Positions 41,053 to 45,862 of a DNA stretch of 47,564 nt are shown here, in pieces. Numbering within the stretch: the first letter of the stretch is position 1; the number at the start of each line of letters is the position of its first letter. The stretch lies in the sequence record KX523699.2; one strand, 5' to 3'. The notes under the pieces were generated by a model that had not been told where the DNA came from, searched no databases, and was given only the letters and a program-made list of their open reading frames with translations. The stretch comes from Salmonella phage IME207. Made by a program: the position numbers and the translations under genes.

Positions 41053-41309
41053 ATCCTCGCGCCAAGACGTTCAATTGCTTGTCTCTTTGTTTCATCATCT
41101 ATTCCGCTATAAAAATACATATAACTAAGATTCCATAGATAATCTTCTGGCCTCTCATCGGCAAACAAATCATCCCACTCAAAAATCCATTCTCCAGTTC
41201 TCTGTCTTCTGTATATGGTTAACCATGTGTTGCTTCGTGGAGGGTATCCGAAGGCAACAGGGATTGGCTTGCCATGAAAAATCCTCTTAAAAATGCTATC
41301 AAGGAACAC
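41046..41309 (-). CDS. hypothetical protein
   Basis: 87 aa. First gene after the promoter region. Confidence 0.4.
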   Translation of the reverse strand: MFLDSIFKRIFHGKPIPVAFGYPPRSNTWLTIYRRQRTGEWIFEWDDLFADERPEDYLWNLSYMYFYSGIDDETKRQAIERLGARIW

Positions 41310-41319
41310 TGCTATATCC

Positions 41320-41384
41320 TTTTATTGATGTTTCTACGTCAGTTAGCTTATACTCAATCTACACCAACAATCAAGGGTCAATTT
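41320..41384 (+). promoter_or_regulatory. promoter for primase gene
   Basis: TTGATG at 41325-41330, 17 nt, TTATAC(T). TTCTACGTCA in the spacer. AATCTACACCA at 41356-41366. AAGGG RBS. Confidence 0.55.
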
Positions 41385-42338
41385 ATGAGATACGACTGGA
41401 AAGACATTGAGCCAAAAATGATTGGCAACTGGCAGGCAGCCATCATGTCTATCGTCAATGTGGATAGCAGAGTTTTCAACGGCAAGCACCAACCATGCCC
41501 GTCATGCCTTGGCAAAGACAGGTATCGTTTTGATGATAACTTCGAAACAAAAGGCGATGGCGGTGCAATCTGCAATCAGTGCGGTTCCGGCAGCGGAATG
41601 AACTGGCTGATGAAACTCTCCGGAATGAGCTTTCCTGAAGCACTTGAGGCACTTGGTGGATTCCTGAATATGCACCCGCGCGAAAAACTGGAGGCAATCA
41701 GGAAGGAATTACCGAAGATAAATTACAACGATGACTTCATCACCGAGCAGGAAGTCGCAGCAATCATGTCTAAAACGACTCGTGTCGCGATGAATGAGTG
41801 GACTTTGATAAATGGTATTGGTTGCGACGTTAACGTCGTCAGAGGTAAATCTGGGGAGCTTATTGCGGTTGAGATGATGCATGCTGACACAATGAAGCCG
41901 TGCAACGTGGCATTCATTGGCATGGATGGTGATTCATTCAGAGCTTTTTTCCGCGCAGGATACAACAAAGACTCAGCCATCAACGGAAAACTCACACGTG
42001 GCGCGATAAGTCCAATCGGAGAAGACAACGGAAAGTTCATTTACCTGGTATCTGATTATGCCGATGCGTGGAAGTGCCATTACTTCACTGGCGCGCATGT
42101 CTGGTGCTGCTGGTCGCCGGAAAACATGTGGGAAGTGGTGCGATCGGTTAGCGATGAGATGAAAGCACGGTTGCGTTGCATAGTTAATTATAAATTCGAC
42201 GAACTGTGCGCTGCGGAAAACGCAGGGCTTCCGGTGATGCTGCCTGATGATGCGGACACAATAAGGATGGCGAAGCGGATCAGAAGAAGGATTTATGACG
42301 CTGGCGAGTTGATAGAGAAAATGTCAGTTAGAAGATAA
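41385..42338 (+). CDS. DNA primase-like zinc-binding protein (P4-type zinc-binding domain)
   Basis: CPSCLGKDRYRFDDNFETKGDGGAICNQCGSGSGMNWL. Internal ATG at 41385. Plus-strand gene inside a minus-strand module. Confidence 0.5.
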   Translation: MRYDWKDIEPKMIGNWQAAIMSIVNVDSRVFNGKHQPCPSCLGKDRYRFDDNFETKGDGGAICNQCGSGSGMNWLMKLSGMSFPEALEALGGFLNMHPREKLEAIRKELPKINYNDDFITEQEVAAIMSKTTRVAMNEWTLINGIGCDVNVVRGKSGELIAVEMMHADTMKPCNVAFIGMDGDSFRAFFRAGYNKDSAINGKLTRGAISPIGEDNGKFIYLVSDYADAWKCHYFTGAHVWCCWSPENMWEVVRSVSDEMKARLRCIVNYKFDELCAAENAGLPVMLPDDADTIRMAKRIRRRIYDAGELIEKMSVRR

Positions 42339-42370: not shown

Positions 42371-42672
42371 GCTTTGATGTTAACTTTTATTGCGAACACT
42401 TCCACCGGGTCATGCCCGAAGTGTGGGTGAGTGATGGTTTTAACCGTCCATCCATCGTATGGGATATCAATACGCCTGGATTTATCATCCTTCTTTGGAT
42501 ATCCTTTTGTGATAATTAACCTTTCGAACTTCCTTCCAATCTGTCCGCTATCTTTAAAGTTAATAAGGCGTTTCTTCCAGTAGTCATTGAAAAGGCGATA
42601 CTCTTCCGTTTTCTCCCCGCGAATCATGGCATCGAAGTATTCACCTTTTACAGCAAGTTGCAGGTTAGCCAT
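42367..42672 (-). CDS. ASCH domain protein
   Basis: LQLAVKGEYFDAMIRGEKTEEYR matches the ASCH GxKxxExR signature. GGAGGT RBS. TAATG coupling. Confidence 0.55.
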   Translation of the reverse strand: MANLQLAVKGEYFDAMIRGEKTEEYRLFNDYWKKRLINFKDSGQIGRKFERLIITKGYPKKDDKSRRIDIPYDGWTVKTITHPHFGHDPVEVFAIKVNIKA

Positions 42673-42929
42673 TACCGCACCTCCAGTCTCCATACCGCCT
42701 GACCAATCCGGCTGGCATAGGTGTCTTTGGATACTGCTCCGTCTTTAGCCATCTCCATAAGAATTTTGCGCAAATCTGCAGAACGCCACTCTTCATCAGG
42801 AAATTCCTTCTCCATTGCCAACCGCAAATTCCAGGTTGCTATCGTGAATGGATATTCCCCGCCGAGAGCTTTCTCTTGCAGGGCAGCCCGTGAACGCATC
42901 ACCTGCAAAACCTTCTCTTTTACATCCAT
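42672..42929 (-). CDS. hypothetical protein
   Basis: 85 aa. AGGGTAAGGAA RBS. Confidence 0.45.
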   Translation of the reverse strand: MDVKEKVLQVMRSRAALQEKALGGEYPFTIATWNLRLAMEKEFPDEEWRSADLRKILMEMAKDGAVSKDTYASRIGQAVWRLEVR

Positions 42930-42939
42930 TTCCTTACCC

Positions 42940-43131
42940 TCACTTAATCATCAATTTTGAAATGTCAACATACCCAACACAAAATCTGTGCCAGCAATCA
43001 TCAAGCACGTGGTAATTAGAGCGAATCCATACTTTGTTAATCCCACTCCAGAAAAACCACGTCGAATAACCATGCGGCCTGAAATGCCATGAACCTTCTG
43101 AGCGGCAAAGTTCGCCTGATATTGTTCTCAT
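42940..43131 (-). CDS. hypothetical Trp/Cys-rich protein (doubtful)
   Basis: 63-aa ORF with GAGGT RBS. Unusual composition, so it may be non-coding. Confidence 0.2.
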   Translation of the reverse strand: MRTISGELCRSEGSWHFRPHGYSTWFFWSGINKVWIRSNYHVLDDCWHRFCVGYVDISKLMIK

Positions 43132-44681
43132 TTCAACCTCGGATTAATGTGGACAGTATTACCAATAAAAACGCAGTAACCATCCTCTTCAAGTGATGGC
43201 AATACACTTGATCTGAGTCGGTCATAAATTTTAGGTATCCCTTTGAATGGTCGCACGTTTTTAAGTGAATCATAAAGCCACTTCACCGTTACGTTTGTTT
43301 TTCCTTTCTGAGCGGCAGAGCGTAGCTTTTCTGCAACAACATCAAATTCAGAACGCTCGCCAGCATATCCATTTGATTCAACAGCATCAGTGAATGTTTT
43401 TGTCAGTGCGTCATAAACACTGATGGCGCGACTAATCTCATTTTCGCCGATAATCTTTGAACGCTTTCCTCCATCGCACCAGTTTTCAGCAGCGTGAAAT
43501 ATTGCTGCCAGACGGATTATTTGCTTATCAGCTTTACCCATCGCGCCACGAAGAAGAACGTGGTCCCACTTACCGCCGGGAAGGAAGTTTTTCTCCCACT
43601 GATTTCGTAACAGGCCGATCATTCTTGCTGAGTCATTGTGAAGCGTCAGTTTTGTTTTTTCTGCTGACACAACATTATGTATAAATCTTGCATATTCCGA
43701 CCTCAAGCTGTCTGGCATTGGCTTGCTTACAGGGCAATCATTAACCATGTCCCAGTGTTCGCGATAGCCAAGCATTGATTGCTCTCGCAACATGAGGAAA
43801 CGTTCAGAAAGCCCGTTACCCCTGTCGCCAGCGGCAAGAATGGCATCAATACTTTCATCCTGCGCAATCACACTTATGTTTCCAAGCACATAACCAGATG
43901 AAACGCCACGACCAACACGAGCAGAGCCAATGAATCCGCCATCCCATCCTTTCAGGATGACTTCTGCGTTTGCCTTTCCACCTTCCTTTCCGTAAGAGAG
44001 GCCAAGACATGTGTTAAGAACGCTTGCCTCGTCACTTATCAGATTAAAAAAACCACCCTCATGGATTGCCTGATGCTGGACAGCCTCTGGAGTTGCGTCA
44101 GTAAGTGGATATGTAATCGTATAAAGCTCTTCCAGCTTCTCCTTTTCCCTAGCAATATCATCGCCGATTAGTGCCTTTGCATTCTGATTACTGGCCTCTT
44201 TGTATGCCTTCATCAACTCTTCGATGCGAAGATTTATTTTTATGATTTGTTTTTCCATCTTTTTGGAAAGGTTGTCATATTCAATCTTCACCGGATTCAT
44301 ATGCATTGAGTTGATAGCGGTTTTCCCTGCTGATGGAGGCTGAGAAGTAACCACGTAAAGAGAAACTGGAAGCTCTGAATGGTAATACTCAACGCTAAAG
44401 TTTCTCGTCATTGCGCTGGCAACGCACCCAAGTAAATGCATGAACGATGTATTTATTGGGAACTGAACGGCGCGAGCTGCAGCGATTGCATAACGAGACA
44501 GCAAATCAGCCCGGTGCTCACTGGTCAGTTCTGTTTCTGAGTACGTTACATCACGCTCCTTACCTTCCTTGATGTCAAGCCACATGTTTGAGCTTGGTGT
44601 CATGCCATGATGGAAGGCGACGCGAGCAGGAGATACTTTTAATTCCCTTGCTTCGTTGAAGATGTCTTGAGCTGTAATCAT
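43128..44681 (-). CDS. putative replication-associated P-loop protein (DUF3987/VirE-like)
   Basis: 517 aa. P-loop-like QPPSAGKT. Position in the replication module. Confidence 0.4.
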   Translation of the reverse strand: MITAQDIFNEARELKVSPARVAFHHGMTPSSNMWLDIKEGKERDVTYSETELTSEHRADLLSRYAIAAARAVQFPINTSFMHLLGCVASAMTRNFSVEYYHSELPVSLYVVTSQPPSAGKTAINSMHMNPVKIEYDNLSKKMEKQIIKINLRIEELMKAYKEASNQNAKALIGDDIAREKEKLEELYTITYPLTDATPEAVQHQAIHEGGFFNLISDEASVLNTCLGLSYGKEGGKANAEVILKGWDGGFIGSARVGRGVSSGYVLGNISVIAQDESIDAILAAGDRGNGLSERFLMLREQSMLGYREHWDMVNDCPVSKPMPDSLRSEYARFIHNVVSAEKTKLTLHNDSARMIGLLRNQWEKNFLPGGKWDHVLLRGAMGKADKQIIRLAAIFHAAENWCDGGKRSKIIGENEISRAISVYDALTKTFTDAVESNGYAGERSEFDVVAEKLRSAAQKGKTNVTVKWLYDSLKNVRPFKGIPKIYDRLRSSVLPSLEEDGYCVFIGNTVHINPRLK

Positions 44682-44954
44682 TTAGACCTCGTACTCTGTT
44701 GCAAATTTCTCATGAGGATTTTCTGATAACCATTCCTTTGCTCTCAAAACTGCAGCGTTTGCTTCCTCTGCCGTTTCAAACATACCAAGCTCATATCTTT
44801 TCTTGAGTACCATCACTCTCGCTCTGAATTTTTTCGATGCCTTGTGGTAATCAACACCGTAGTATCCAGTGGTTGATTTTGATGATGCAACCCACCCAGC
44901 ACCACGACCATGTTTGTTTAGTTTGCGCTTTAATAATACACCGTGATTGCTCAT
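44682..44954 (-). CDS. stand-alone AP2-domain DNA-binding protein
   Basis: GYYGVDYHKASKKFRARVMVLKKRYELGMFETAEEA is an AP2 fold like the HNH C-terminal domains. First gene of the leftward early operon. Confidence 0.55.
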   Translation of the reverse strand: MSNHGVLLKRKLNKHGRGAGWVASSKSTTGYYGVDYHKASKKFRARVMVLKKRYELGMFETAEEANAAVLRAKEWLSENPHEKFATEYEV

Positions 44955-44984
44955 TTCCGCTCCCCAATCAAGTATTTCCCCAAA

Positions 44985-45013
44985 ATACTACCACCTACTC
45001 CCCAGCATTGCAA
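44985..45013 (-). promoter_or_regulatory. candidate leftward early promoter
   Basis: On the minus strand: TTGCAA, 17 nt, then TAGTAT. Confidence 0.3.
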
Positions 45014-45033
45014 CACAACTAAAATCTGCAAAA

Positions 45034-45345
45034 GGGGTAAATTGGGTTAACGTGGGGCAACCCACCTGCCCCACGAAACTTTCCTCTAAGTATATGTAAT
45101 ATAATAAAATTATTATTATTTGGGGTAATGGGTAATATTATTATTCATATTATAGATAGAAATTAACATAATATTAACAAATTGATTATTTGAATATATT
45201 TATAAGGGGATGGGTGTGAAATCTGCCCCTTTTTACCCACGAAAAATAAAAACATTCAAATCAATGATTTACGATGAAAAACGTGGGGCAACCCACCTGC
45301 CCCACGACCTGCCCCACAGGCAAAAATTTACCCCACGAGCACGTT
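45034..45345. repeat. iteron/AT-rich region: candidate origin of replication or pac
   Basis: Perfect 28-bp direct repeats AACGTGGGGCAACCCACCTGCCCCACGA at 45049-45076 and 45280-45307. Each is a near-palindrome. Additional CCCCACGA-like copies at about 45236, 45312 and 45331. A ~130-bp core at 45090-45220 is ~80% AT. Confidence 0.5.
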
Positions 45346-45360
45346 TTTAACGCATTCCTG

Positions 45361-45400
45361 TTGACGTAGAATAGCAGCTGATGTAGATTGAACTCATCGA
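45361..45400 (+). promoter_or_regulatory. rightward early promoter
   Basis: TTGACGTAGAAT at 45361-45372, then CTGATGTAGATTG at 45378-45390. TTGACG, 17 nt, then TAGATT. Confidence 0.45.
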
Positions 45401-45419
45401 AACAAACGAGAGTGAAGAG

Positions 45420-45566
45420 ATGAAAATCAAAAACCGTGAAGAATTCGAGGATGCACAGGCCATGGCACGCATTGCAGTTGAGAGCACAAACAACAGCATT
45501 CCTGCAGATTCATTCTGGAACGCTGCAATGCAGGCATTAATCTCAGCGTATGGGTTAAGAAAATGA
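45420..45566 (+). CDS. hypothetical protein (48 aa)
   Basis: GAGTGAAGAG RBS. Confidence 0.3.
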   Translation: MKIKNREEFEDAQAMARIAVESTNNSIPADSFWNAAMQALISAYGLRK

Positions 45567-45661
45567 CGGGCGCAGCATTCGAACTTATCGCCAGTCTGGT
45601 TGCTGTGGCGTTAATTATCATAGCAGTGGCAGTATCTAAATCAGGGTATAAGGAGTAACAA

Positions 45662-45862
45662 ATGGCAAAGACTATCTATCGTCGCGAAAAGCTGGAACAA
45701 GAACTCGGTCACGTTGGCGCGCAAAACTTTATGAGCAGGCAGGTTGAGCGAGCAGTGAACTCTCCAAGATGCTCTAAGGTGTGTCGTGTATGGCACAGAG
45801 ATGGAGATAAACGCGTGCTGGACGAGGTAATCATCTCTGGGCAGGCAAACTACCAGCTTTGA
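45662..45862 (+). CDS. hypothetical protein
   Basis: AAGGAG RBS. Confidence 0.4.
   Translation: MAKTIYRREKLEQELGHVGAQNFMSRQVERAVNSPRCSKVCRVWHRDGDKRVLDEVIISGQANYQL

Follow-up and report, generated by a model that had tools for sequence, protein, structure and literature searches.

Inverted protein-binding sites that flank AT-rich DNA are known from the archaeal origins served by Orc1 and MCM (origin recognition boxes, ORB) and from the origins read by SV40 large T antigen and papillomavirus E1, and a ring helicase of the MCM or superfamily 3 (SF3) kind is thought to assemble at such origins as two opposed hexamers. In phage lambda, the palindromic iterons of the O protein stand beside an AT-rich tract inside the O gene; O itself is not a helicase, DnaB is recruited via P, and among lambdoid phages initiator gene and sites are exchanged jointly as a cassette. 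The Rep protein encoded by pathogenicity islands of Staphylococcus aureus (SaPIs) is an initiator-helicase that reads iterons of 5–6 nt through a winged helix, the sites being located beside its gene on both sides of an AT-rich centre and in opposed orientations, and it loads itself (PMC9371898). Here, a repeat-bearing, AT-rich intergenic element (45030–45345) of Salmonella phage IME207 (KX523699.2; the entire stretch analysed, 47,564 bp, is referred to as the window) was compared with these systems. The interval 45033–45338 is predicted to be, and in our judgement probably is, a bidirectional replication origin of the iteron plus unwinding-element type; this reading is a prediction with comparative support.

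The SaPI Rep/ori system is the closest known counterpart. In both, multiple short iterons (5–6 nt in SaPIs, a 5–7-nt core here) are found by the gene of a ring helicase, sites, some of them oppositely oriented, lie on both sides of a central AT-rich region, and the helicase ends in a winged helix (in SaPIs the part that reads the iterons, here taken from a structure model). The recognition word changes with the initiator, specificity being exchanged together with the helicase, and a separate loader is not evident; for IME207, the joint change of word and initiator is known from comparison only. The SaPI ori immediately follows rep, whereas the phage element is placed between divergent promoters, upstream of its helicase operon (one relative, the locus L034 described below, is an exception). 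It has more sites (~14–16), with two in 28-bp palindromes, its helicase is of the MCM-like DUF3987 family, and its carrier is no satellite but a virulent enterobacterial siphophage; biochemical work on SaPI Rep has demonstrated binding and melting, whereas for the phage protein both are predicted.

With the archaeal and eukaryotic-virus origins the locus shares inverted sites on either side of AT-rich DNA, and the nearest folds to the DUF3987 model are MCMs and an ORC winged helix. In archaea and eukaryotes, however, reading of the origin and loading of MCM fall to a separate initiator (Orc1/Cdc6, ORC), whereas here the helicase's own winged helix is the proposed reader, and the DNA sites have no sequence relationship. 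Palindromic sites by an AT tract and the cassette exchange of initiator gene and sites recall lambda ori; a lambda-type origin was nevertheless rejected, since the sites are intergenic and the neighbouring proteins (DUF3987, an AP2-like open reading frame (ORF), a Zn-ribbon primase and a superfamily 2 (SF2) helicase) include no homologue of O or P.

Matches to the region come from virulent enterobacterial siphophages (Macdonaldcampvirus/Akiravirus/Deseoctovirus/Skatevirus cluster). Escherichia phage EcoIv28_Lewi is closest with 94.5%, Salmonella phage Vi II-E1 has 91.6%, and Shigella phage DS8 and Salmonella phage Akira come next. In the literature searched, which did not cover the 2008 Vi II-E1 genome paper, no origin was described for this phage cluster or for T1-like relatives, and a 2024 paper on the T1-like phage TLS found no origin-like repeats (PMC11447400). 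In GenBank, the repeat pair is recorded for Vi II-E1 (AM491472, repeat_region) as 'repeat of sequence GTGGGGCAACCAACCTGCCCCACGA' and for Akira (MK599416), in the same position, as two short repeat arms, with no function given in either record. The half-site family, the AT core, the helicase link and the cassette exchange described below are absent from both annotations. Because the design of iterons plus unwinding element is well known, the element is not a new kind of origin; the new part is the assignment of an origin/initiator pair in this phage group.

Half-sites and AT-rich core

A 28-bp direct repeat, AACGTGGGGCAACCCACCTGCCCCACGA, is present in two perfect copies (45049–45076 and 45280–45307), each of them an inverted repeat, CGTGGGGCA-ACCCACC-TGCCCCACG. 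Both the repeats and their near-palindromic form had been reported in the initial annotation and were borne out by a direct check of the sequence, as were the three or more further copies claimed nearby: TGCCCCAC at 45310–45317, TTTACCCCACGA at 45327–45338 and TTTTTACCCACGA at 45230–45242. The word TGCCCCAC occurs exactly five times in the window, always inside 45052–45317, and three of the four window copies of CCCCACGA fall in this region (0.67 expected for the entire window). In addition, GGGGTAAAT at 45034–45042 is inverted relative to AATTTACCCC at 45325–45334. A strict half-site, [TGA][GTA]CCCCA, was counted seven times in 45030–45345 against 0.2 expected (35-fold; two in the best other 316-bp window), and a loose form 16 times against 1.5 expected (11-fold; six in the best window elsewhere). 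The iterons named earlier are thus a real cluster far above chance, but their functional unit is a short half-site of 5–7 nt, [T/G/A][G/T/A]CCCCA(C), in ~14–16 copies, and not the 28-mer. Perfect 28/28 identity of the two repeats is specific to IME207 and Lewi, one to three spacer bases differing in Vi II-E1, DS8 and others.

The half-sites are grouped in three clusters around an AT-rich core (Table 1), with at least one inverted pair per side plus extra copies, those on the right being mostly rightward; in relatives, the rightward pair of the inner right cluster reads TGCCCCACT(T/G)(A/C)CCCAA. An 8-bp variable spacer separates the left cluster from the core, and an A-rich variable spacer the inner right cluster from the right outer one. 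AT content is 86% over the core; the 130 bp of 45091–45220 reach 81.5% and the 203 bp that separate the 28-bp repeats 77%, in agreement with the earlier description of inverted ends around ~130 bp of ~80% AT. The lowest-GC 100 bp of the whole window start at 45091 (GC 0.14).

Conservation was computed from an alignment in which GenBank and IMG/VR were represented by 18 distinct variants. TGGGG / CCCCA, the core of the half-sites, was invariant or nearly so, with variable palindrome spacers, and the spacer flanking the left cluster had a mean pairwise identity of 0.49. For the part of the AT core that lies outside the search word (45085–45126), a mean pairwise identity of 0.91 was obtained over 17 variants, against 0.49–0.53 in the adjoining spacers. 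Had close relatives that retain the replication module lacked the repeats, this would have spoken against an origin; the repeats were present in all of them.

The same alignment bears on the possibility that the 28-bp palindromes act as hairpins, either as bidirectional or antisense intrinsic terminators that insulate the operons or as single-stranded DNA signals for priming or recombination. When single-stranded, either palindrome can fold with an energy of −12.1 kcal/mol (z = −6.0), and copy 2 is followed on the minus strand by TTTTTC, a match in the terminator scan. Neither strand of copy 1, however, has a T-run, neither palindrome is known to be entered by a transcription unit, and unpaired single half-sites are as conserved as paired ones. 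At the eighth arm position all four base combinations were found, and there was no covariation outside the 7-bp core; a candidate extension of the hairpin (GCA..TGC to GAA..TTC in HC6) failed for the same reason. The lack of covariation beyond the core favours protein half-sites over a selected hairpin. An Rfam scan of 44700–45700 returned no credible RNA family, the sole match, to a yeast snoRNA model, scoring 16.8 bits where the gathering score is 47. A hairpin function is accordingly regarded as very improbable.

Linkage and joint exchange with the DUF3987 gene

The gene of the 517-aa DUF3987 protein lies 352 bp left of the first half-site. A helicase, a primase and a P-loop protein had been placed immediately to the left of the element in the initial annotation; the helicase stands, whereas the P-loop protein is this same DUF3987 protein, and the primase is encoded 2.7 kb away on the + strand, outside the leftward operon. 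The gene of this Zn-ribbon primase (41274–42338) converges on the leftward helicase operon, an arrangement common to all relatives examined except L034, where primase and helicase genes are co-oriented and adjacent.

A cluster of CCCCA words around an AT minimum adjoins the DUF3987 gene in the window group (86–100% protein identity), in the loci L032 (62%) and L034 (42%) and in Vibrio phage D81 (40%, 79-kb genome). Within the 6.4-kb locus of L032, 13 of the 15 CCCCA sites fall in the region, and 10 of 12 in D81. In Pectobacterium phage Ymer (DUF3987 49% identical), the cluster is located ~1.7 kb upstream of the gene, at the record end. The cluster of L034 lies downstream of the helicase gene, after a terminator-like hairpin, and none of the small cassette ORFs is present there; DUF3987 is therefore the only constant neighbour of the cluster. 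Vibrio phage 455E52-1, with a helicase of 26% identity, has another word, CGATGACACG, in seven copies flanking an AT minimum.

In the T1-like phage Rtp (NC_007603, ~167–390; helicase 36% identical), two TTCCGCGGAAAT palindromes were seen 210 bp apart around an AT-rich AATTATTATTATTATATATAT tract, where the leftward helicase operon and the rightward early operon diverge. These palindromes and their AT tract are a candidate origin for a T1-like phage.

A natural exchange was found on comparison with Salmonella phage 64795_sal3 by blastn. The two phages have the same gene order, with 89–92% identity up to 42370, no similarity in 42371–45360 and ~90% identity from 45361 onwards. The swapped 2,990 bp hold the helicase gene, small ORFs and the entire repeat/AT region, and on the right, similarity returns with the first nucleotide of the rightward -35 hexamer. 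In place of DUF3987, 64795_sal3 encodes a 495-aa protein without detectable similarity to it (BLASTP E=2) that matches the helicase half of primase-helicase PHROGs, and its cassette carries repeats of its own, GGATAA/TTATCC(A), around an AT-rich tract (L009 2120–2520, equivalent to window 45030–45360). Since the sites were swapped with the helicase while the rightward promoter and early genes were kept, they belong to the leftward cassette; with a rightward side that is 90% identical, their binder is not a rightward early protein. Several of the GGATAA-type copies depart from the DnaA box TTATCCACA at one or two positions (TTATCCAGA, for instance), so that the alternative cassette may use host DnaA with the 495-aa helicase-like protein. 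In the CiPGr genome-reduction paper on the relative seszw, which appears to have the other cassette type, only gene-level deletions are reported.

The exchange also bears on packaging, the other half of the earlier proposal of an origin or packaging site, by which the element would be a pac recognition site or a physical genome end. Repeats and bendable AT-rich DNA can serve terminase small subunits; the linear Akira record (L002/L030) has its start within the AT core, corresponding to window position ~45176, and three IMG/VR loci (L017, L019, L025) end 200–520 bp right of the core. These positions differ, however, and the ends were ruled out as physical termini; probably, they mark places where assembly broke in very AT-rich DNA flanked by repeats, or the edges of stored segments. 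Pac sites are normally in or beside terS, whereas the element lies ~3.3 kb upstream of the presumed terL, counted across the window end, with ~2 kb of small early genes between. The window starts with a 147-aa ORF followed by a 474-aa ORF at 1052–2476, and the latter is presumed to be terL from the gene order in DS8, not from a domain search. Moreover, the element is exchanged with the helicase and not with the terminase genes. Packaging is unsupported because relatives package by headful according to PhageTerm, STGO-35-1 being of the pac type with one preferred terminus and permutation and KlebP_265 fully permuted without termini (PMC8954984, PMC11769527). A packaging role is thus extremely improbable, whereas the origin half of the proposal is supported by the word/AT cluster beside DUF3987, the cassette swap, the MCM-like winged-helix protein and the SaPI-like layout.

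DUF3987 proteins have been described as superfamily 6 (SF6) helicases distantly related to MCM, with a winged helix-turn-helix (wHTH) at the C-terminus, and proposed as phage replicative helicases (PMC4889955); for one member helicase activity is proven (PMC11724360). In the IME207 protein, the Pfam domain covers residues 78–428. An AlphaFold2 model built with 71 homologues reached a predicted local distance difference test score (pLDDT) of 90.8 and a predicted template modelling score (pTM) of 0.88, and its C-terminus has the order helix-strand-helix-helix-strand-strand of a winged helix. The best solved matches in Foldseek were all MCM helicases, followed by Cch of the staphylococcal cassette chromosome mec (SCCmec), the ORC2 winged helix and SaPI Rep; a sequence search of the PDB with the helicase found no relatives, only the fold comparison giving matches.

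Ten DUF3987 helicases were compared with respect to their winged helix. The ratio of winged-helix to ATPase-core identity was 0.85–0.98 in the five CCCCA lineages versus 0.62–0.74 in lineages with other words; the cores of D81 and L034 are as diverged as T1-like cores, yet their winged helix is better conserved. Residues found in the CCCCA-type helicases alone include D[SN].K (helix 2), GYCV (wing) and NP[RK]LK (end). Conservation of the winged helix thus suggestively tracks the repeat word. Among PLSDB plasmids, no combination of helicase and word was found (two weak or irrelevant matches), and a search of E. coli chromosomes for the helicase or the element as an independent replicon, prophage or satellite gave no match.

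Promoters, flanking genes and further motifs

The features of the locus are collected in Table 1.

Table 1. Features of the predicted origin and its surroundings in the IME207 window
Feature	Position	Strand	Details
Left half-site cluster	45033–45076		Leftward TTTACCCC and TTAACCCA (degenerate), then 28-bp palindrome (CGTGGGG/CCCCACG, 7-nt variable spacer); mean pairwise identity 0.72
AT-rich core, proposed DNA-unwinding element	45085–45205		121 bp, 86% AT; (ATT)n tracts and middle leftward half-site pair GGGGTAATGGGTAAT (45122–45136)
Inner right half-site cluster	45204–45242		AAGGGGATGGGTGT (two leftward sites), then TGCCCCTTTTTACCCACGA (two rightward sites); word scan and alignment
Right outer cluster	45280–45338		Second 28-bp palindrome (45280–45307) and rightward half-sites TGCCCCAC and TTTACCCCACGA; mean pairwise identity 0.77
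Match to integration host factor (IHF) consensus	45259–45271	+	AATCAATGATTTA; consensus scan
Second IHF-consensus match	45175–45187	-	Consensus scan
Exchangeable replication cassette	42371–45360		Three small ORFs, DUF3987 helicase, AP2-like ORF and repeat/AT-rich region; blastn vs 64795_sal3
DUF3987 protein, MCM-like AAA+ helicase	43128–44681	-	517 aa; C-terminal winged helix, residues 442–512; proposed initiator-helicase reading CCCCA half-sites
AP2-like DNA-binding ORF	44682–44954	-	90 aa; first gene of leftward operon, abuts DUF3987 gene; Pfam AP2 E=7e-4, below curated cut-off
Leftward promoter-like site	44985–45013	-	TTGCAA (45013–45008), 17-nt spacer, TAGTAT (44990–44985); read from sequence
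Rightward early promoter	45361–45389	+	TTGACG (45361–45366), 17-nt spacer, TAGATT (45384–45389); promoter scan match

As described initially, the element lies between divergent leftward and rightward operons, more precisely between their promoters, which fire outward and bracket it almost symmetrically. The rightward promoter, which lies 22 bp beyond the right outer cluster and has conserved hexamers with a variable spacer in 17 relatives, drives an operon of small early genes that starts at 45420. The leftward promoter-like site scores 8/12, under the scan threshold; its -35, TTGC(A/G)(A/T), and its position are kept in relatives. Three extra CCCCA words lie inside its spacer and leader (CTCCCCA at 44962, TTCCCCA at 44978 and CTCCCCA at 45000, + strand) and may serve autoregulation of the helicase operon by the site-binding protein.

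This layout raises the question whether the locus is concerned with transcriptional control only, half-sites and palindromes being operators or activator sites of a dimeric phage or host regulator that times both early promoters and the AT-rich DNA an UP-element or bend, with replication starting elsewhere. The outermost sites end 20–24 bp upstream of both -35 hexamers, palindromic sites are typical of dimeric regulators, an AP2-like DNA-binding ORF is first on the left, and the additional CCCCA words of the leftward promoter and leader as well as the two IHF-consensus matches would fit. However, Vi II-E1 has the AP2-like ORF as a pseudogene, and other small ORFs replace it in HC6, STGO-35-1 and ST1UNAM, the sites being kept; the sites were swapped with the helicase though the rightward promoter and early genes were kept at 90% identity; the L034 cluster follows the helicase gene and a terminator-like hairpin, and does not precede the helicase operon; and ~14–16 sites over 300 bp around the AT extreme of the genome would be unusual for an operator. 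Control of transcription as the sole function is considered unlikely. A regulatory role is compatible with origin function, and the two may well coexist; in iteron plasmids, binding of the initiator often autoregulates too.

Among PHROGs, the AP2-like ORF corresponds to the DNA-binding portion of HNH endonuclease families, and it shares 37% identity with a segment of ORF63, an HNH protein of 64795_sal3. It is present in the window, Akira, DS8 and VLCpiS13e, and the small ORFs that replace it in HC6, STGO-35-1 and ST1UNAM are of other sizes and have no Pfam match. It is probably a remnant or accessory gene resembling the DNA-binding domain of an HNH homing endonuclease, and was rejected as binder of the sites because it is not conserved among the phages that retain them. 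A small ORF at 45210–45350, annotated as a gene in DS8, was also rejected, as it is interrupted by stops or lacks a start in 11 of 17 relatives and consists largely of repeat words.

The IHF consensus WATCAANNNNTTR has two matches in the whole window, both inside the element. That at 45175–45187 is lost in most relatives (ATTGATT to ATGGATT), and that at 45259–45271 is kept in the clade with the A-rich spacer. These matches are weak evidence, fitting an origin or a promoter region alike, and the motif carries little information in AT-rich DNA. No DnaA box (TTATCCACA, ≤1 mismatch) was found in 44955–45419, and a DnaA-dependent, oriC-like origin was rejected on this ground. Elsewhere in the window 24 such boxes occur; 11.3 were expected, and none of 100 shuffles reached 24. 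The sign of the GC skew changes at ~45 kb, which is weak evidence for an origin because skew is confounded with transcription direction.

Triplet-periodic tracts, (ATT)3–4 or (AGT)3, were observed at 45111–45148 and in the AT cores of L008, L034, Rtp (L035) and 64795_sal3 (L009). The window core and 64795_sal3, whose cassette has an unrelated helicase, also have the block CTAAGTATATGTA in common. This recurrence hints at a factor common to both cassettes, for which the primase (95% identical), a promoter or a host protein would be examples.

Predicted mode of initiation and its implications

For the predicted origin, we infer a course of events as follows. The DUF3987 protein would read the [T/G/A][G/T/A]CCCCA(C) half-sites through its C-terminal winged helix, with the inverted pairs and extra copies on both sides of the AT core as its recognition targets. 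Helicase rings would form on either side and melt the 121-bp core, the helicase loading itself there without a separate loader, and the phage primase and host polymerase would take over after loading. The outward-firing promoters probably aid opening by the negative supercoils left behind, and binding at the outermost sites may feed back on both promoters.

Several points weigh against this reading. Half-site orientations on the left side are mixed, so that the orientation rule is followed only loosely there, and sites 20–24 bp upstream of both -35 hexamers are also where activator or repressor sites would be expected. In the T1-like phages Rtp, 1513, tonijn and ETEP102 (helicases 35–39% identical), no word cluster was found within 2 kb of the helicase gene, the Rtp palindromes aside. 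The relation between winged helix and word comes from ten sequences and is partly confounded with phylogeny. The AT core is more conserved than simple meltability needs, and therefore another factor may act there, such as a promoter, a priming site or a host factor. Finally, late replication may be recombination-driven, genes for Erf and exonuclease VIII being present in relatives, and the origin might therefore matter only early in infection.

A broader proposition, given about even odds, is that the DUF3987 helicases of phages are initiators that load themselves and recognise their own origin via the winged helix; the present element would then be the first origin to be defined in a very large set of virulent siphophages. 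Members of this set would be the Skatevirus/Macdonaldcampvirus/Akiravirus cluster, its Vibrio and Pectobacterium relatives and, using another word, T1-like Drexlerviridae such as Rtp.

For related phages, including T1-like ones, the comparison yields a simple recipe for origin prediction: where the early operons diverge, or beside the DUF3987 gene, a cluster of words is sought around the AT minimum. If the reading is true, a fragment of ~300 bp and one helicase gene would form a compact replicon for phages used in therapy, biocontrol and synthetic biology. The natural exchange suggests that origin and helicase are swappable as a unit, which would be useful for engineering compatibility or for inhibition by origin decoys. 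A testable origin/initiator pair is provided for a helicase family found in >1,100 phage records. It would show how the MCM-like DUF3987 helicases, so far proposed replicative helicases, find their start site, and relatives of MCM in bacterial viruses that join ORC-like reading and helicase in one polypeptide would become directly testable.

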